Below are positions 10,843 to 19,262 of a DNA stretch of 33,452 nt, in pieces. Source of the DNA: Oscillospiraceae bacterium. Lineage in GTDB: Bacteria; Bacillota; Clostridia; Oscillospirales; CAG-272. Numbering within the stretch: the first letter of the stretch is position 1; each line of letters opens with the position of its first letter. Where the stretch lies: positions 1 through 33,452 of the forward strand of contig SVQS01000003.1 in the NCBI GenBank assembly GCA_015065205.1. Reading direction: 5' to 3'. The position numbers were made by a program, and so were the translations under genes. The notes beneath the pieces are model-generated. The model was not told the DNA's origin and searched no databases. It saw nothing but the letters and a program-made list of their open reading frames with translations.

Positions 10843-12687
10843 GTGATCAGAGAAGATTTGAGAAACGTGGCAATTATCGCGCACGTTGACCACGGTAAAA
10901 CGACATTGGTAGACGGGCTCCTCAAGCAGGGCGGCATCTACCGCGAAAATCAAGAGACCGTTGTTCGCGTTATGGACTCCGGCGACCTTGAAAAAGAGCG
11001 CGGCATTACCATTTTGGCAAAGAACACCGCCGTTCACTATAAGGATATTAAGATCAACATCATCGATACCCCCGGCCACGCCGACTTTGGTGGCGAGGTT
11101 GAGAGAATTTTGAAGATGGTAAACGGTGTTATCCTTTTGGTTGACGCTGCCGAGGGACCTATGCCCCAAACACGCTTCGTTTTGCAAAAGGCGTTGGAGT
11201 TGAACCACCGCGTTATCGTTTGCATCAACAAAATAGACAAGCCCGATGCCCGTCTTGGCGAGGTTGAGGACGAAATTCTCGAACTCTTGATGGACCTTGG
11301 CGCAAACGACGAACAGCTCGACAGCCCGATGATGTACTGCTCGGGTCGTGCAGGTACTGCTACCGAGGATCCCCTCGAAGAGGGCGTTGACCTGACTCCT
11401 CTGTTTGAAAAGATCGTCAACTATATGCCTGCTCCCGAGGGAGATGAGACGGGTGATCTTCAGCTGCTCGTTTCCTCCATCGACTACAACGATTACGTTG
11501 GACGTATCGGTATCGGACGCATCGAGCGCGGAAACATTCGTGTAGGTCAAGAGGTTGCCATCTGCAACTATCACACCCCCGGCGCCATTAAAAAGACCAA
11601 GGTTGTCTCTCTTTACCAAATTGACGGTCTTGTTCGTCAGCCTGTTGAAAGAGCTACCGTTGGCGACATCGTCTGCTTCTCCGGTGCGGGCGACATCACC
11701 ATTGGCGACACATTGACCACCGTTGCCCATCCCGAGCCTTTGGAGTTCGTTAAGGTCTCCGAACCCACAATGGAGATGACCTTTATGGTCAACAACAGCC
11801 CCTTGGCGGGCAAGGAGGGTAAGTTTGTTACTTCCCGTCAGCTGCGCGACAGACTCTACCGCGAGCTGCTCAAGGATGTTTCCTTGCGCGTATCCGACGG
11901 TGACACCACCGACGAGTTCCGCGTTGCGGGCAGAGGTGAAATGCACCTTTCTATCCTTCTTGAAACCATGCGCCGCGAGGGCTTTGAGCTTGCTTGCTCC
12001 AATCCCCGTGTGCTTTACAAGGAAATCGACGGCAAAAAGTGCGAGCCTATGGAGCGCGTAACGCTTGACGTTCCTATGGATTACGTTGGCGTTGTTGTTG
12101 AAAAGCTCTCCCAACGCAAGGGCGACCTGCTCTCGATGAACCCTGTCGGAAGCCGCACACGTATCGAATATTCTATTCCGTCTCGTTGTCTGTTTGGCTA
12201 CCGTTCCGAGTTCCTCACCGCTACCCACGGCGAAGGTGTTATCAACACCATCTTCGATGGTTACGCACCTTATCGCGGAGAGATCACCATGAAGTTCACA
12301 GGCTCTCTCATCGCGTCCGAGGCAGGTGAGACCACCCGTTACGGTCTCTACAACACCCAGGAGCGCGGGCAGCTCTTTGTTGGTCCGCAAACGCAGGTTT
12401 ATGAGGGAATGATCGTTGGTGAAAACCCGAAAAACGATGACATTGCCGTCAATCCTTGCAAAAAGAAGCAACTCACCGCCATCCGTTCTGCGGGTGCGGA
12501 CGAAAAGCTTCTCTTGACTCCTGCCAAGATTTTCACCTTGGAAGAAGCAATCGAATATATCACCGATGACGACCTCATCGAGGTCACACCCAAGTCCATC
12601 CGTCTGCGCAAAAAGATCCTCAATACCGAACTCCGTATGAAGGAAATGATGCGCCGCCGCCGTGAATTGGAAGCACAAAAGAAGTAA
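10843..12687 (+). CDS. typA: Translational GTPase TypA/BipA
   Basis: 'LRNVAIIAHVDHGKTTLVD', 'ERGITILAKN', 'DTPGHADFGGEVER', 'GRGEMHLSIL', 'EVTPKSIRLRK'. Confidence 0.98.
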   Translation: MIREDLRNVAIIAHVDHGKTTLVDGLLKQGGIYRENQETVVRVMDSGDLEKERGITILAKNTAVHYKDIKINIIDTPGHADFGGEVERILKMVNGVILLVDAAEGPMPQTRFVLQKALELNHRVIVCINKIDKPDARLGEVEDEILELLMDLGANDEQLDSPMMYCSGRAGTATEDPLEEGVDLTPLFEKIVNYMPAPEGDETGDLQLLVSSIDYNDYVGRIGIGRIERGNIRVGQEVAICNYHTPGAIKKTKVVSLYQIDGLVRQPVERATVGDIVCFSGAGDITIGDTLTTVAHPEPLEFVKVSEPTMEMTFMVNNSPLAGKEGKFVTSRQLRDRLYRELLKDVSLRVSDGDTTDEFRVAGRGEMHLSILLETMRREGFELACSNPRVLYKEIDGKKCEPMERVTLDVPMDYVGVVVEKLSQRKGDLLSMNPVGSRTRIEYSIPSRCLFGYRSEFLTATHGEGVINTIFDGYAPYRGEITMKFTGSLIASEAGETTRYGLYNTQERGQLFVGPQTQVYEGMIVGENPKNDDIAVNPCKKKQLTAIRSAGADEKLLLTPAKIFTLEEAIEYITDDDLIEVTPKSIRLRKKILNTELRMKEMMRRRRELEAQKK

Positions 12688-12688
12688 T

Positions 12689-12800
12689 TGTCAAGGTCTA
12701 ATTTCATTGCTAACAAGTCTAATTTAATCGCTAACAAGATTGGGTTAAAAAATGCGATGTTTAATTTAATCGCTAACAAGTACAATTTAATCGCTAACAA
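12689..12800 (+). repeat. typA-proximal transposon end: four 21-bp putative transposase-binding sites
   Basis: Consensus gtctaatttaatcgctaacaa at 12696, 12717, 12759 and 12780, all in 21-bp phase with one unrelated 21-bp spacer. Confidence 0.9.
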
Positions 12801-12810
12801 GAAAATACCA

Positions 12811-12858
12811 AAGCAGAAGGACGGGACTCCAAAATTGGAGTTCCGTCCTTTTGCTTTT
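12811..12858 (+). terminator. Strong hairpin just inside the transposon end (would terminate typA read-through)
   Basis: aagcagaaggacgggactccaa-aa-ttggagttccgtccttttgctt followed by tt. Confidence 0.75.
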
Positions 12859-13001
12859 AAAACCGTATCGACCGCAGGCTCAATTTCTTTGAAATCGTGT
12901 GATTTATCGGTTATCTGTAAAGTGTTTTGAATGTTACGGATTATTTTATCCTTCGTAATTTCTTTTTCGTGTTGCTCTGTTCTGTCATATATTAAAAAAT
13001 A

Positions 13002-13030
13002 TTGAAAAACGATTGAATATATGATATAAT
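13002..13030 (+). promoter_or_regulatory. sigmaA promoter of the cargo operon
   Basis: TTGAAA-17 bp-TATAAT with extended TG. Confidence 0.75.
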
Positions 13031-13062
13031 AGACCATATAAAGCTTGTATTGGAGAATTTTT

Positions 13063-13497
13063 ATGCCTAACAAAAGCATTCAAATATACGTTGCCCTAAA
13101 GCACATGGGAAACGTAGCAAGAAAAGTAAAAGAATATCCGTTCTTACTCGGTAAGACACCGCGCACGTTTCGTGAGTTGATCGAAGAATCGGTAAGATCT
13201 TGCGTTGATGCATACAAGACACGCGCAAACAATGCGAACAACCCCGCACCGCTTACCGATGAGCAGCTTGACGGGATGCGCGAGATCGGCAAATTTGCGT
13301 TTGGTGTGCATTACAATGAAAACAAAATAGACGAAGAAAAAGCTATTCAAACTGCGATAGATGCGGTGACGGACGGACTTGTGCGCGTGTTCAAGGGGAC
13401 GAATGAAATTACCGATCTTGATGCCGAAATCGAAATATCCGAAGGCGATGTCTTTACGTTCGTAAGACTTACAATGCTCTCGGGCAGAATGTGGTAA
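13063..13497 (+). CDS. Small hypothetical protein with MoaD/ThiS (ubiquitin-like)-style C-terminus
   Basis: RBS GGAG before ATG 13063. C-terminus 'VRVFKGTNEITDLDAEIEISEGDVFTFVRLTMLSGRMW'. 13 bp upstream of the next gene. Confidence 0.75.
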   Translation: MPNKSIQIYVALKHMGNVARKVKEYPFLLGKTPRTFRELIEESVRSCVDAYKTRANNANNPAPLTDEQLDGMREIGKFAFGVHYNENKIDEEKAIQTAIDAVTDGLVRVFKGTNEITDLDAEIEISEGDVFTFVRLTMLSGRMW

Positions 13498-13510
13498 AGG
13501 AGGGACCCCA

Positions 13511-16500
13511 ATGGCGGATAATGTTTCGGAAAAATACGAAGCAATGATGAAAAAGAAAAAGCTCGCGGAAGCTTATGCGGAAAAATTTCGCAAGCGCGAG
13601 GAATTGCTGAAAGAAAAGCTAAGCAAGGGGCAGTATGATTTTTTCAAAAATCAAGGACAATTCCTTGACCAGACCATCTATTCGAATCTCGTAACGGCAA
13701 TGAGAAATCCGAGTACCGTTCCTTCGGAATACGTATCCAAAAAATTGGGATGGCTCTTTGATTTTGCAATTCCAAGCCGTGAAAAGGACGTTATTTTGTA
13801 TTTTGCGGACAGACTGCAAGAATATCCTTATTCGGATTCTTACAGCAGAAGATCGTTCAGGGCAAAAGGGAACGGCGCATACGCATCGAAGCTTGCGTAT
13901 ATGATCCGTCAATATGGCAATGCCAATATGAATGTAGTCGACGAGCCCCTCGACAAAATTATCACCGGAGAAGTATCCGAACAGGCCAAGGCTTATCTTG
14001 ACGGCTATGCTTGGCGCGGATGCGGATATACGGGATGGCAGGTAGCATACGCACTTGATCATCATAACAGTAAAGTAGAAGAAGCCGTTCGTCGAATCCT
14101 GACCGAGGAAAACGGTTCGGGAATGATGACAAACGAGCTTATTCGCGGTGTGGTTTTCAGCCACAGAAGTGATTTTCATGAGCTTCTGGGCAAGCTGCTT
14201 CTTGCGGCAAGACTGCAAGAAGGTCTCCGCCAAGTCATCTGCGAAAATGCCGATTACGGCACAAAAGCCTGTTTTCTCACCATATTAAAGGTAATTGCCG
14301 AGGACAATTTGATCCGTTTTTCATCGGTTAAGCGCGCTGTGGGAACTTGGCTTGGTATCTTGACGGAAGAAGCGCGCGATCTTGACCGCGTCAGCGAAAA
14401 GAGCGTTCGTCTGATCATTGATTGTCTTGAAGACGAAAACGCACGAAAGAAACACCTTGCATCCGAGGATGCGATGAAGATCTATATTGCTCTTTGGAGC
14501 TACGGTCTCGATGATATTGACGATGCCATTCAAAAAATCGTTCAGATTGCAAACAACGGCTCAATACATCAGTTACTTGTAGCAGGCTATTTTGTGGCAA
14601 ATCTCGATCTGCCGTATCTATCCAATCAGATCGCAAAGATCGTGCTGAAGAAGCACTACGATAAGGACGAGGTTCTTGCAGTATGGCTTCCTTGCTTTAT
14701 GCCCACACGAGTGTCTGCCTTGTGGAATGCCATAAGAAACGAGCAGCCTATCGAATACAACACTTGGTTTGATAGTAAGGCTGAAATACACGAGCATTAT
14801 CAGCTTATCAAAGAGCTGTATTCTGCTTTCTCCGGCAAAACCAAAACATTCTCCCCCTGTGTTTTTCCGTGGTATGAAGCCAAAATTGCCAAGAGTGATT
14901 TTGCCGAACTTCTTTGCACCTTGACGGCTTTGTTGGGGGATAATGAAAAAATTGATGAAGCCTGCGGCTTGATCAAAGAATGTGATTCCAATCAAAGGCA
15001 AACTTATTTTTACGCCCTGCTGCACAATCCCAAAACACCGCTCCAGCGTAAAACCGTGTTGGAAGGTCTTGTTGATAGAGAAACATACACTCGCAAATCA
15101 GCTTACACGATTGTGTCCCAAATGAAATTGTCGGCTGATGAATATCACTCTATCGAGGAATATTTGCGTTTTAAGGGTGCAGATATTCGTAAAAACGTAA
15201 TAGAGCTTTTGCTCCGGCAAAATGATTCCGAACTCACCGCGTGCATCGGTCGACTGCTTGAAAACAGCAAGGAAGAAGTGCGCCTTGGCGGACTTGATAT
15301 GCTGTTGCAGCTCAAAAAGGATGCAAAACGCCACAAAATCACAGAGTCCTTTGCAAGTATTCTTTCCCAAAGAGCAAAAGCCGATGATCTTCCCTCAAAG
15401 GAAAAGATCTTGCTTGATTCTCTTGTTCCCGCAAAAGCGGAAACGAAAACGGAGGCAGTCAAGCTGTTCTGTGCAGAGGACAAATACCTGCCTGTCGAAT
15501 TTGATGCAGAGTATACAGAGCTGTGTGCAAAGACCTTTGCAGAATATTTCCCGGACTCGAAATTGCCCGAGCTGATTCGCGGCAAAAAGAGGGGGATGAA
15601 CTTTTTTGACAAGATCAAATCGGCATTGACTGATCCTGTTGCCTGCAAATCCGCAACTGTTGCGGCGATGGATATTCTGTCGCTTTCCAAGCTGATTGAT
15701 GAGCATAAACGCGATCCGTTTGTAAATTCGTGGGGCGAAACTGTACTTTTTGGAAACGTACCGCCGCATTCTCCCCACCTTGAGGACAAAGACGGTAAAT
15801 TCGTGTTTGCAGAGCTCTGGGATGAATGGAAAAAGACCAATGGAATAACCAATGCGCGCCTTGTTCGTGCGCTCGTTTTGTTCAAAGCATACAGAAAGAA
15901 AACACACTTTTCCGTGACTTGCGCAGAGACGATAAGAACCGTATTTGGAGCAGGCTTTGAACGTGGCGAAAATCTTCCTTATCCCGCTATTATCGCCATG
16001 ATTCTCAGTCACCTGCTTGACTGTGTGCCGAAGGAAGAGCTCTCACAACTTGCATCCGCAATTGCGATATGGTTTATCGGGTGCGTACCTGATAATATGG
16101 TTATGATTCACGCTCCAACACAGGAAAAATTGCCAATGCAACTGGAAATGGCACACCTGCTTGCACACGCTCAGTTGTATCAAATTTACAAATGGTTGAA
16201 ATGTGAAAACAATGCTGATTTGAAAAACACTTTCCCATTAGCTGTTGCATCTGCGGAACGTTGTGTGGCAGCTTTCAAGAAGATTCCCAAAGAAGAAACG
16301 AAGATCGGCAATTCCTATTACTACATTGGCGATTCACGTATTCGTGTTTTGCACGAGCCGCATGAGAGTATGTACGGTTCTCGCAATCCTCTTGTCGGTG
16401 TAAACGCATATTTGTTTGCGGCATATCAAGGTATTATTACCAAGGCTCAGTTGTTTGAATTCTTGCTTGATGCTGATAACCTACGCGAATCGATGGAGAC

Positions 16501-18760
16501 CGTGACTGCTATTGCATCGACTTACTACGAAAAGGGGAAGCAGATCTCCGCCCACGATTCTTACAAGGGGATTCGCAATGCCCGTAAGGTGAAAGAGTTC
16601 CTTGGCAAAGAGGATGAACCGAGTGCAGAGGATATAAAGATCATCGAGTACGTTTCTCATATTTATGAAGCTGTTATTCCCGTCGTTCTTGCTTCCGAGC
16701 TTAGCCGTGGCGATAGCCCCGCGACCTATACCAAGGGAATTCACGGCATCGCGCGCATTTACGGAGCAAAATATCTCTCGGAGATATTGTCCGCTATGGG
16801 TAACGATACCCTTGACAGAACCGCATATTACGGTTGGGGCGAAGCAAGTAACCGCAAAGGCTCGCTTTCCTACCTTCTTTCCGTTTGTATCCCGTCCGAC
16901 GAGGATTCTGTAGATACGCTTCGTGCGGCTCTTTCGGGGAAGAAGATCACCACCAAGCGCTTGATCGAAGCGGCATTGTTCTCTCCCGAGTGGATACCGA
17001 TCATTGGCAAATATCTTGAGATCGATTCCTTTGAATCGGTTTGCTACTACTTTATGGCGCACATGAACGAAAGGTTCGACGACAAGCGCAAGGCGATGAT
17101 CGCAAGATTTACGCCCCTTTCGGAGGACGAATTGAATCTCGGTGCGTTTGACGTGAATTGGTTCCATTCTGCATACGATTCCATCGGAGAAAAGGAGTTT
17201 GACCTGATCTACGATGCCGCCAAGTACATTTCCGATGGTGCAAAGCATTCCCGCGCGAGAAAGTATGCGGATGCGACACTTGGCAAATTTGGTGTGGACG
17301 AGACCGAAAAGACCGTTTCCGACAAACGAAACAAAGACCTTTTGATGGCGTATGCACTCATACCGCTTTCGGGCGAAGACGATATTTGCCGCCGCTATCT
17401 TTATATCCAAAGATTCCGCAAGGAAAGCCGTCAGTTCGGTTCACAACGTGTAGCAAGCGAAGGGAAAGCTGTTGAAATGGCGCTTACCAACCTCGCGATC
17501 AACGCGGGATATTCCGATACGATGCGTCTCACCTTGCGTATGGAGACCAAGGTCATCGACGACAGCCGAGCACTTCTTGAAGAACAGATAATCGAGGGGG
17601 TATCCTTAAAGATAACACTTGATGAAAACGGCAAGGCAAGTCTTGTTTGTGCAAAGGACGGCAAGACGCTCAAGAGCGTTCCCGCAAAGCTGAAAAAGAA
17701 TGAAACCGTTGTGGCTCTTACCGATATGGTCAAAACGCTCACCGAGCAGTACAGACGCACACGGGTGATGCTTGAGAGAGCAATGGAAGACAGCACCATC
17801 TTTACCTTTGGTGAGCTTTCAGCACTGTCGGCGCATCCCGTGGTTTATCCGATGCTCAAAAATCTCGTGCTGATCAGCGGCGATGCCGTTGGCTTCCTTG
17901 CCGACAACGGACTTGTGAATGATAATGGAACGATACAGCCTCTTGACGATAGTGCGAAAATCAAGATCGCCCATCCGTTTGATCTTTACAGCAAGAGCTG
18001 TTGGAGAGATTATCAAAAGTATCTCTTTCAAAACAAGATCGCACAGCCCTTCCGCCAAGTATTCCGCGAGTTGTATGTCAAGACGGCAGAAGAAATGGAT
18101 ATGTTCCATTCTCTCAGATATGCCGGCAATCAGATACAGCCCGCCAAAACAGTCGGTGCGCTTAAGAGCCGCCGTTGGGTAGCGGATATTGAGGACGGTC
18201 TGCAAAAGGTTTATTACAAAGAGAACATTGTGGCGCAGATCTATGCGCTTGCCGATTGGTTCTCGCCTGCGGATATTGAAGCTCCCACGCTTGAATGGGT
18301 GTGCTTTACCAACCGAAAGACAGGTGAAGAGATCAAGATCGCGGATATTCCCGACATCGTATTCTCCGAGGTCATGCGCGACGTTGATCTCGCAGTCAGC
18401 GTAGCGCACGCAGGCGGTGTCGATCCCGAAACAAGCCACTCCACAATCGAGATGCGTGCGGCTATTCTTTCCTTTGTTCTGCCTATGTTCCGCATAGCAA
18501 ACGTCAAGGTAGAAGGTCATCACGCCATCGTGGACGGCAAGCTTGCAGAGTATTCGATCCACCTCGGAAGCGGTGTCGTGCATCAGATTGGTGCTGCAAT
18601 GATCCCCGTCCTGCCCGTCCATTCACAGCATAGAGGAAAGATATTCCTGCCTTTTGTGGATGACGATCCCAAGACAGCCGAGATCATATCCAAGGTTCTT
18701 TTGTTTGCAGAGGATGATAAGATCAAGGATCCTATGATATTGTCAAATATCAGTAAGTGA
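13511..18760 (+). CDS. Large DUF4132-domain (YehI/MolR-like) protein with helical-repeat N-terminal region
   Basis: RBS AAGGAGG. C-terminal motifs 'LKSVPAKLKK', 'IAHPFDL', 'QPFRQVFRELY', 'FSEVMRDVDLAVSV', 'YSIHLGSG', 'FLPFVDDDPKTAEIISKVLLFAEDDKIKDP'. HEAT-like repeats around aa 500-610. Confidence 0.85.
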   Translation: MADNVSEKYEAMMKKKKLAEAYAEKFRKREELLKEKLSKGQYDFFKNQGQFLDQTIYSNLVTAMRNPSTVPSEYVSKKLGWLFDFAIPSREKDVILYFADRLQEYPYSDSYSRRSFRAKGNGAYASKLAYMIRQYGNANMNVVDEPLDKIITGEVSEQAKAYLDGYAWRGCGYTGWQVAYALDHHNSKVEEAVRRILTEENGSGMMTNELIRGVVFSHRSDFHELLGKLLLAARLQEGLRQVICENADYGTKACFLTILKVIAEDNLIRFSSVKRAVGTWLGILTEEARDLDRVSEKSVRLIIDCLEDENARKKHLASEDAMKIYIALWSYGLDDIDDAIQKIVQIANNGSIHQLLVAGYFVANLDLPYLSNQIAKIVLKKHYDKDEVLAVWLPCFMPTRVSALWNAIRNEQPIEYNTWFDSKAEIHEHYQLIKELYSAFSGKTKTFSPCVFPWYEAKIAKSDFAELLCTLTALLGDNEKIDEACGLIKECDSNQRQTYFYALLHNPKTPLQRKTVLEGLVDRETYTRKSAYTIVSQMKLSADEYHSIEEYLRFKGADIRKNVIELLLRQNDSELTACIGRLLENSKEEVRLGGLDMLLQLKKDAKRHKITESFASILSQRAKADDLPSKEKILLDSLVPAKAETKTEAVKLFCAEDKYLPVEFDAEYTELCAKTFAEYFPDSKLPELIRGKKRGMNFFDKIKSALTDPVACKSATVAAMDILSLSKLIDEHKRDPFVNSWGETVLFGNVPPHSPHLEDKDGKFVFAELWDEWKKTNGITNARLVRALVLFKAYRKKTHFSVTCAETIRTVFGAGFERGENLPYPAIIAMILSHLLDCVPKEELSQLASAIAIWFIGCVPDNMVMIHAPTQEKLPMQLEMAHLLAHAQLYQIYKWLKCENNADLKNTFPLAVASAERCVAAFKKIPKEETKIGNSYYYIGDSRIRVLHEPHESMYGSRNPLVGVNAYLFAAYQGIITKAQLFEFLLDADNLRESMETVTAIASTYYEKGKQISAHDSYKGIRNARKVKEFLGKEDEPSAEDIKIIEYVSHIYEAVIPVVLASELSRGDSPATYTKGIHGIARIYGAKYLSEILSAMGNDTLDRTAYYGWGEASNRKGSLSYLLSVCIPSDEDSVDTLRAALSGKKITTKRLIEAALFSPEWIPIIGKYLEIDSFESVCYYFMAHMNERFDDKRKAMIARFTPLSEDELNLGAFDVNWFHSAYDSIGEKEFDLIYDAAKYISDGAKHSRARKYADATLGKFGVDETEKTVSDKRNKDLLMAYALIPLSGEDDICRRYLYIQRFRKESRQFGSQRVASEGKAVEMALTNLAINAGYSDTMRLTLRMETKVIDDSRALLEEQIIEGVSLKITLDENGKASLVCAKDGKTLKSVPAKLKKNETVVALTDMVKTLTEQYRRTRVMLERAMEDSTIFTFGELSALSAHPVVYPMLKNLVLISGDAVGFLADNGLVNDNGTIQPLDDSAKIKIAHPFDLYSKSCWRDYQKYLFQNKIAQPFRQVFRELYVKTAEEMDMFHSLRYAGNQIQPAKTVGALKSRRWVADIEDGLQKVYYKENIVAQIYALADWFSPADIEAPTLEWVCFTNRKTGEEIKIADIPDIVFSEVMRDVDLAVSVAHAGGVDPETSHSTIEMRAAILSFVLPMFRIANVKVEGHHAIVDGKLAEYSIHLGSGVVHQIGAAMIPVLPVHSQHRGKIFLPFVDDDPKTAEIISKVLLFAEDDKIKDPMILSNISK

Positions 18761-18855
18761 TTGAGGCATATTGAGCTTGAACGACTTACATAGGTTAGTT
18801 GATATCAGTAGAATGTCAATTTTTACGAAAGTTAAAATTGTTTGATAAGTCAACA

Positions 18856-18892
18856 GACCCCCGAGGCAAATTTTGCGCTTCGGGGGTTCTTT
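18856..18892 (+). terminator. Terminator of the cargo operon
   Basis: gacccccgaggc-aaattttgc-gcttcgggggtt-cttt. Confidence 0.7.
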
Positions 18893-19008
18893 GTAAAAAG
18901 GAAAAGTTTTCAAGATAAAAAGTCTTGTTTCAAAAATAGATGTAAGTTAACATTGAAGGGGCAAGTTTCTAACAAAGACAAAAACATCCGTTTTTATGCT
19001 TTATAAAC

Positions 19009-19145
19009 TTGTTAGCGATTAAATTAAACCTAAAAATAACGCATTTTCAGAAAAACAAATCTTGTTAGCGAATAAATTAGACCTGAAATGCTTAAAATTG
19101 CTCAAAAACACCGCAATCTGTTAGCGATGAAATTAGACTGTGACA
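19009..19145 (-). repeat. Distal transposon end: three spaced 21-bp putative transposase-binding sites
   Basis: Inverted copies at 19009-19029, 19062-19082 and 19118-19138 (53 and 56 bp apart), then terminal tgtgaca. Confidence 0.9.
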
Positions 19146-19160
19146 GTAATTGAAAGAGAA

Positions 19161-19262
19161 TGCAGGGGGGGAACTTTTTTCCAAAAAGTTCCCCCCCTGC
19201 ACCTCCTTCAAAAACTTTTGCACAAAAGGGAAGGAGAAGCCGTCGGTTCACAAACAGACGGA
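19161..19262. repeat. Structured dispersed repeat, partial inverted copy C
   Basis: Hairpin tgcagggggggaactttttt-cc-aaaaagttccccccctgca, then cctccttcaaaaactt and ccgtcggtt...aacagacgg, matching the 3' half of copies A and B in reverse orientation. Confidence 0.75.

Follow-up and report, generated by a model that had tools for sequence, protein, structure and literature searches.

The typA gene is followed directly by a transposon-type element

The window analysed here, the whole 33,452-nucleotide stretch of an Oscillospiraceae draft genome (G000, 74.7% complete), contains the gene typA (bipA) and, directly behind it, a transposon-type element of 6,457 bp (12689-19145) with TGT...ACA tips. 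The typA reading frame ends AAG AAG TAA, with its stop codon TAA at 12685-12687, and the element's tip TGTCAAGG begins one base later. At the other end CTGTGACA (19138-19145), the inverted partner of TGTCAAGG, is followed by GTAAT, which matches the bases at 12684-12688. The element thus reads TGTCAAGG...CTGTGACA between two GTAAT copies (12684-12688 and 19146-19150), and its terminal arms are 27-nt inverted repeats that are 89% complementary. The features of the junctions are listed below; G780 and G803 are other genomes, described further on.

10843..12687, + strand: typA (bipA) coding sequence, intact after the insertion (Pfam GTP_EFTU, 1e-53; BipA_C, 2.5e-46)
12684..12688, no strand: left copy of the target-site duplication, GTAAT, which includes the typA stop codon (present as a single copy in the empty site of G780)
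12689..12801, + strand: typA-proximal transposon end, consisting of the tip TGTCAAGG and four 21-bp transposase-site repeats in 21-bp phase (167 of 170 bases as in the G803 end)
12810..12857, no strand: hairpin with a 22-bp stem, preceded by an A-tract and followed by a U-tract, close inside the typA-proximal end (fold energy -37.8 kcal/mol; z -11.5)
19008..19145, - strand: distal transposon end, consisting of three spaced transposase-site repeats and the tip ...CTGTGACA (from the core search and the terminal inverted arms)
19146..19150, no strand: right copy of the target-site duplication, GTAAT, identical to the left copy
19161..19201, + strand: native typA terminator hairpin, now 6.4 kb from typA (perfect 19-nt inverted repeat; fold -41.7 kcal/mol; directly 3' of typA in empty sites)

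Both ends are built from copies of an 18-nt core, AATTTAATCGCTAACAAG, which occurs seven times in the window at up to three mismatches: four times on the + strand (12700-12801) and three times on the - strand (19008-19134). Shuffled sequence is expected to contain 0.03 copies, and none of 100 shuffles reached seven. The typA-side sites start at 12697, 12718, 12760 and 12781, in a 21-bp phase whose slot at 12739 is degenerate, and all face inward; the three far-side sites also face inward and lie 53-56 bp apart.

In the sister species G780 (locus L091) the corresponding site is empty, and the window's flanks are joined there through one GTAAT (...AAGAAGTAAT/TGAAAAGAATGCAGGGGGG). The element boundaries and the 5-bp duplication are therefore real. 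An earlier note on this DNA had described a GTAAT duplication that takes in the typA stop codon while leaving typA intact, and an end with four clustered sites facing the gene; the sequence together with the G780 empty site bears out the first point, and the core sites at 12700-12801 bear out the second. The anatomy of the element, with its stop-containing duplication and its four-site end towards typA, is confirmed. We discarded the alternative of an integrase-type island, since no integrase is encoded, both tips and duplication are of the DDE type, and relatives of the element carry tns genes.

The hairpin at 12810-12857 was detected by folding and is absent from the list of a simple terminator scan. 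It probably acts as a two-way terminator that replaces the displaced native one for typA and stops tnsC transcripts arriving from the opposite side. A hairpin stands at the equivalent position of another end type found behind typA (type C, below), with a fold of -30.3 kcal/mol.

Tn7-like ends recur behind typA within one genus

We located the 3' end of typA in 70 of the 78 genomes of the window's genus, and for 69 genomes (70 loci) we could read the sequence past the stop; G832, whose contig stops at the typA stop codon, was excluded from this reading. A Tn7-like end or a relic of one lies 0-1 nt past the stop in 10 of the 69 genomes, and in every occupied site with surviving repeats the multi-repeat end is the one towards typA. 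The other 59 genomes have unrelated sequence after typA, mostly a terminator. Recurrence at a fixed distance and orientation from typA, which the earlier note had put forward as the check on its idea, is thus seen, and with three different end types (A, B and C). The ten sites are as follows, a slash marking the start of the element.

Type A, G000: junction TAA T/TGTCAAGG, four sites
Type A, G803: junction TAA/TGTCAAGG, four sites
Type A, G794: junction TGA T/TGTAACGG, four sites, 85.6% like the window's end
Type A, G812: junction TGA/TGTCAAGG, one-site relic
Type A, G811: junction TGA T/TGTTAAGG, one-site relic
Type B, G821: junction TAA T/TGTTTTTG, three TTAAACTC..CTTAACGG sites, then the contig end
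Type C, G791: four GTTACAACTCT..TGAAATA sites
Type C, G790: site type as in G791
Type C, G820: two sites
Type C, G822: one-site relic

A previous scan for two adjacent sites, with one genome per species, had returned 15 loci; at two of these, L033 (G803) and L043 (G794), a four-site end abuts typA, with TypA 97.6% and 92.7% identical, respectively.

Four of the typA-side ends are reduced to one or two sites, as if deleted between repeats: those of G812 (L161, 150-260), where host genes follow directly after the reduced end, G822 (L096), G820 (L135) and G811 (L162). They look like fossil ends that are no longer mobile. In G806 (L153) a similar hairpin lies behind typA, but repeat sites are lacking; this possible relic is not among the ten counted.

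Occupancy points to repeated insertion

The end sequences of types A, B and C are unrelated to one another, and the junction itself varies by one nucleotide, from TAA/TGT in G803 (the G812 end likewise abuts the stop) to TAAT/TGT in G000. In a tree of the last 1,300 nt of typA, built from 29 loci (42 loci with less than 1,300 nt each, including G820, were omitted), the nine occupied rows require nine changes, at least six of which are forced by well-supported branches. Three unrelated end types, one-nucleotide junction shifts and the interspersion of occupied with empty sites on the tree argue for repeated events, and typA occupancy would then reflect independent insertions rather than one inherited event.

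The contrary account is a single insertion behind typA in the ancestor of the genus, inherited vertically, diversified in place and lost from most species, with no targeting involved. The restriction of all cases to one genus suits it, as does the state of the sites, 4 of 10 being decayed relics. It is also favoured by the copy in G811, whose cargo element is 90.2% identical to the window's over 5.8 kb and thus about as similar as the flanks (86-92%); that element has one end cut to a single site and the far end deleted. Since cargo and flanks are about equally similar, the window copy could be inherited rather than newly inserted, and the two copies may descend from one old insertion. For the genus as a whole, however, descent from one ancient insertion is already strained, and we consider it very unlikely. 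TnsB and TnsC of types A and C are 38-41% and 46-48% identical, against 80-94% for the typA 3' ends of their hosts; conversely, the window end and the G803 end share 167 of 170 bases (98%), against 89.5% identity of typA over 1,845 nt. The shifting junctions, the alternation of occupied and empty sites with its minimum of six changes, and the cleanness of the empty sites also speak against it.

Clustered ends of these types lie at typA and nowhere else in the genus

Across the genus, type A sites occur at typA only (in G000, G803 and G794), type B clusters at typA only (in G821), and clustered or exact type C sites at typA only (in G790, G791, G820 and G822). The type C pattern is too loose for single sites, which matched at the rate of the reversed control, and we counted clustered or exact matches alone. 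The 707-aa TniQ and the TnsB of the G803 element each matched in 2 of the 78 genus genomes, G803 and G791, both times in elements adjacent to typA. Insertion beside this conserved gene is therefore specific in site and orientation: it falls 0-1 nt past the typA stop, and there are no clustered ends elsewhere in the genus. The earlier note had named random sites and orientations as the pattern that would count against it; every clustered end of the three types in the genus is instead at typA.

It might be the strong terminator hairpin behind typA, and not the coding sequence, that attracts these elements. Some transposons favour terminators or hairpins, and many empty sites do have a hairpin of high stability behind typA. 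Such hairpins stand behind many genes, however, yet clustered ends were found behind no other, and the sequences after the stop vary widely within the genus while the insertion point stays fixed to the stop within 1 nt. Tn7, as described in PMC2918618, reads the coding end of its target, and the sequence at the insertion point is irrelevant. We therefore give attraction by the hairpin little credence.

Outside the genus the searches returned little. A site search of 401 family genomes yielded, outside G000, just isolated single sites with one or two mismatches, as in the reversed control. The junction pattern ATGAARGAWATGATG-N36/37-TGT, run on 321 family genomes, matched G000 and one spurious locus, which says little beyond the genus, where the sensitivity of the pattern is uncertain. 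A metagenome scan for the two-site pattern returned 25 loci, none with typA or the cargo genes, and is uninformative for this gut lineage. Distant TnsC relatives (22-28% identity), in the canonical tnsB-tnsC-tniQ order, were present in 2 of 401 family genomes and 4 of 401 order genomes.

Autonomous relatives encode two TnsD-like proteins

Two Tn7-type gene sets were found in the genus, in G803 (type A) and G791 (type C), both at typA, and each encodes TnsA, TnsB, TnsC and two long TnsD-like TniQ proteins. In G803 the order is tniQ (607 aa), tniQ (707 aa), tnsA (239 aa), tnsB (731 aa) and tnsC (588 aa), reading towards the four-site end and typA, and the G791 element has the same order. TnsB of both elements is of the DDE transposase type: the best match in the PDB is Tn7 TnsB (7pik, E 1.3e-35, residues 31-585), and Pfam matches of the G803 protein to rve (E 5.4e-6, below the cut-off) and Mu-transpos_C are weak. 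G803 TnsC matches AAA_22 (8.9e-13) and TniB (1e-6), as an AAA+ regulator. G803 TnsA, the endonuclease of cut-and-paste transposition, matches Tn7_TnsA-like_N (8.4e-14) and is 77% identical to its G791 homologue. The two TniQ proteins match the Pfam family TniQ, the selector family, at 1.3e-16 and 8.9e-16.

An AlphaFold model of TniQ-607 (pLDDT 86.7) is closest to Tn7 TnsD(1-318) bound to TnsC (8glu, E 1.8e-5, probability 1.00) and also matches the TnsD-TnsC-DNA complex 8v32; by sequence TniQ is marginally similar to TnsD (E 0.25), and the likeness is one of fold only. In both TniQ proteins the TniQ domain is followed by four zinc-ribbon-like repeats of about 60 residues, ...H..C(G)..F...(R)C..C, whose His and Cys are invariant or nearly so among 41 relatives.

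Type A and type C elements share 73-77% identity in both TniQ proteins and in TnsA, but 38-48% in TnsB and TnsC; identity drops at the C-terminus of TnsA. One selector set has thus been joined to two transposase cores and two sets of ends, both at typA. It is conceivable, and we offer it tentatively, that the two TnsD-like proteins and TnsA form a portable typA-homing cassette that is swapped among transposons. Each selector might then read DNA through its four zinc-ribbon modules, with one paralogue directed to the typA coding end and its partner to a further target, for instance plasmids or phages.

The earlier note had proposed either a TniQ/TnsD-type or an RNA-guided selector at the typA end. 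The first alternative gains from the two TniQ proteins per element and the TnsD-like model; the second, homing by a CRISPR-associated transposon (CAST) with a typA-matching spacer, finds no support in the assembled parts of the elements, where cas genes and CRISPR-like arrays are absent. Some CASTs do also have a pair of TniQ-family genes, according to the review PMC11406308, and the far parts of both autonomous elements are unassembled. But no Cas domain was found among the 11 proteins of the G803 element and 10 of the G791 element that were scanned or matched, nor any CRISPR-like repeat in the 15.2 kb (G803) and 19.4 kb (G791) of assembled element sequence, and the two TniQ proteins, of 607 and 707 aa, are long and have zinc-ribbon arrays of their own. 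We regard RNA-guided homing as extremely improbable. Assignment to the Tn5053/Tn402 group, which lacks TnsA, has a resolvase and inserts at plasmid res sites, is likewise at odds with the elements, which have TnsA and target the chromosomal typA, and whose scanned proteins include no resolvase.

The reading frame of the TniQ-707 homologue in G791 (L160, 4743-6719) is interrupted by one in-frame TAG at codon 299, a Tyr in the type A protein, owing either to a nonsense mutation or to a fault in the assembly. The homologue of TniQ-607 is intact. Adjoining tniQ-607 and divergent from it, both elements carry an open reading frame (ORF) of 427-429 aa (L033, 120-1409, - strand; L160, 8744-10027, + strand), 52% identical between types A and C. 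The protein resembles transposases of the ISL3 type, with a protein-atlas score of 0.95; its NCBIfam match to ISL3 (E 6e-5) falls far short of the cut-off. The constant position of this ORF in the two elements suggests an integral component rather than an insertion sequence that arrived by chance.

The window element is a non-autonomous derivative

Between the ends of the window element lie two cargo ORFs and no other genes, together with a tnsC remnant:

12834..12971, - strand: relic of a tnsC 3' end, 49 residues (tblastn to G803 TnsC residues 490-538, 49% identity, E 7e-7)
13002..13030, + strand: promoter-like site before the cargo genes (11 of 12 hexamer matches with a TG extension; a consensus match alone)
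13064..13497, + strand: cargo gene 1, a small protein of 144-150 aa without known family (the ORF opens with TTG at 13045; ATG 13064 follows GGAG)
13511..18760, + strand: cargo gene 2, a 1,749-aa protein with DUF5724, DUF4132 and DUF7737 (Pfam 4.7e-292, 1.1e-43 and 2.1e-35)

Protein searches with TnsB, TnsC and TniQ gave no matches in the window or in the whole G000 draft. With its ends intact, a tnsC relic and no transposase or other transposition protein of its own, the element is therefore a non-autonomous deletion derivative of a Tn7-like element. It must have been mobilised in trans, we infer, by an autonomous relative such as that of G803.

Cargo gene 1 had no match in Pfam, PADLOC or NCBIfam, and neither cargo protein had a fitting PADLOC or NCBIfam family (the one PADLOC match, E 0.008, is at chance level). 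Judged by titles, the function of DUF4132 is not the topic of the papers found to mention it. The same cargo pair (13064-18760 in the window) also lies behind typA in G811 (L162, 7719-13479).

The autonomous elements carry other cargo. In the type C element of G791 (L160, 10383-14536) it comprises an 891-aa TPR-TIR-DUF6273 protein and a 466-aa SPFH/Band-7 protein with double zinc ribbons, which looks like a defence-type pair. The type A element of G803 (L080, 11-4897) carries two ABC-transporter ATPase proteins (541 and 610 aa), a GHKL histidine kinase and a LytTR response regulator, and this locus resembles one for peptide signalling or a bacteriocin.

Other repeats came up in the searches. 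Site arrays similar to those at typA occur in L039 (9999-10142, a Cytophagales record; AATTTCAACGCTAACAT..) and L046 (9999-10079, an Acidobacteria record; AATTTG.TTGCTAACAAA). Their 10-kb flanks contain neither typA nor Tns proteins related to those of G803, and the arrays are possibly further cargo-only Tn7-like ends. Short repeats, often close to contig ends, are present in G789 (TTACAACTCT..TTTATA, contigs C63, C97, C113 and C131) and G365 (TTGCAACGCTTTTTGAAA, contigs C45, C51, C57, C60 and C110); these are probably the ends of other multi-copy elements.

The end of typA as an attachment site

We conclude that the last codons and stop of typA are very probably a dedicated attachment site for a Tn7-like group in this genus of gut Clostridia, used through a protein (TniQ) selector, and that the window copy was mobilised in trans. 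The stretch that the selector would bind can be placed by analogy with Tn7:

12628..12663, + strand: putative selector-binding stretch in the last typA codons, ELRMKEMMRRRR (+23 to +58 from the centre of the duplication, the position of the Tn7 TnsD footprint in PMC2918618)

In Tn7, TnsD binds at +23 to +58 from the centre of the duplication, within the coding end of glmS, and the element inserts about 20 bp past the glmS stop (PMC2918618). Within the corresponding part of typA, ATGAAGGAAATGATG (12637-12651) is the best-conserved, near-invariant block among 70 tails of the genus. It lies 36-37 nt before the element tip in 10 of 10 occupied tails, compared with 51 of 70 tails overall.

Several observations weigh against an attachment site at typA, in addition to the G811 copy discussed above. 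The complete element with both ends is known from the window copy only, so the 5-bp duplication, GTAAT twice in the window and once in G780, is verified once. All ten occupied sites fall in a single genus, and typA is absent from the 2.2-4.2 kb around the distant TnsC relatives of the family and order. The shared register of the ATGAAGGAAATGATG block is a weak argument, as ten tails would all show it by chance with a probability of about 0.04, or (51/70)^10. The left or far ends of the G803 and G791 elements lie beyond contig ends, where cas genes or another selector could be encoded. A helper element in G000 may have gone unassembled, given the completeness of that draft.

From the observed anatomy, recurrence, orientation, gene content and fold likeness, we infer which protein binds, which bases it would read and how the element would insert. 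One TniQ paralogue would bind typA some 25-55 bp upstream, at the conserved coding stretch ELRMKEMM..., which includes the block ATGAAGGAAATGATG. The bound TniQ would recruit TnsC, which would bridge to the insertion point, and TnsA and TnsB would insert the element 0-1 nt past the stop with its four-site end to typA, a 5-bp stagger giving rise to the 5-bp duplication. In this process typA would remain whole, with the hairpin just inside the end probably supplying a new terminator.

Relation to known Tn7-like systems

The elements of G803 and G791 share with prototypic Tn7 the set of TnsA, TnsB, TnsC and a TniQ-family selector. Tn7 has four close sites at the end that faces the target gene and three spaced sites at the other; the window element, with TGT...ACA tips, has the same layout of four phased sites at the typA end and three spaced sites at the far end. 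The Tn7 operon reads away from the target-proximal end, whereas tniQ-tniQ-tnsA-tnsB-tnsC of the typA elements reads towards it. Also unlike Tn7, the autonomous typA elements have two long TnsD-like paralogues and no TnsE. The TGT...ACA tips, the 5-bp duplication and the single orientation behind a conserved gene that stays intact are again as Tn7 is described in PMC2918618. The target described there, however, is glmS, with insertion about 20 bp downstream, compared with typA, 0-1 nt and a duplication that includes the stop here.

Protein-guided homing of Tn7-like elements is known from Tn6230 (yhiN), Tn6022 (comM), the parE-targeting TniQ of some I-F3 CASTs and the tRNA-targeting TnsD of I-B2 and I-D CASTs, as reviewed in PMC11406308. 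Like the typA elements, these have a TniQ/TnsD protein dedicated to one conserved chromosomal site; unlike them, they are from Proteobacteria or Cyanobacteria as that review presents them, with no typA site, while the typA elements are in gut Clostridia. Among the attachment sites given in the parts of PMC11406308 consulted are glmS, yhiN, comM, parE, tRNA genes, guaC, yciA, ffs, rsmJ and plasmid res sites; typA is absent from them. The earlier note did not recall typA as a described attachment site, and in keeping with this, full-text searches, judged by titles and the starts of abstracts, found no paper that names typA or bipA as an attachment site of the Tn7 family. Neither name occurs in the main texts of Faure et al. 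2023 or Benler et al. 2021. The typA-homing system belongs to the Tn7 family by every defining feature tested; its target appears to be new, while its principle is already known and would not surprise a specialist, and we see it as a useful and clean case.

Tn7-type elements are valued for placing large DNA cargo at one safe and predictable spot, and each further pair of selector and site broadens where this can be done. A natural system that lands just past typA could become an integration tool for uncultured gut Clostridia that are hard to engineer. For the hosts, one fixed chromosomal slot is a route for the exchange of cargo, which here includes a giant DUF5724/DUF4132 protein, a TIR-TPR protein and an ABC-transporter/two-component locus. 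The combination of conserved selectors with swapped transposase cores bears on the separate evolution of target choice and transposase. If the portable typA-homing cassette is real, gut Clostridia would possess a targeting array that is modular, needs protein only and works with interchangeable transposase cores.

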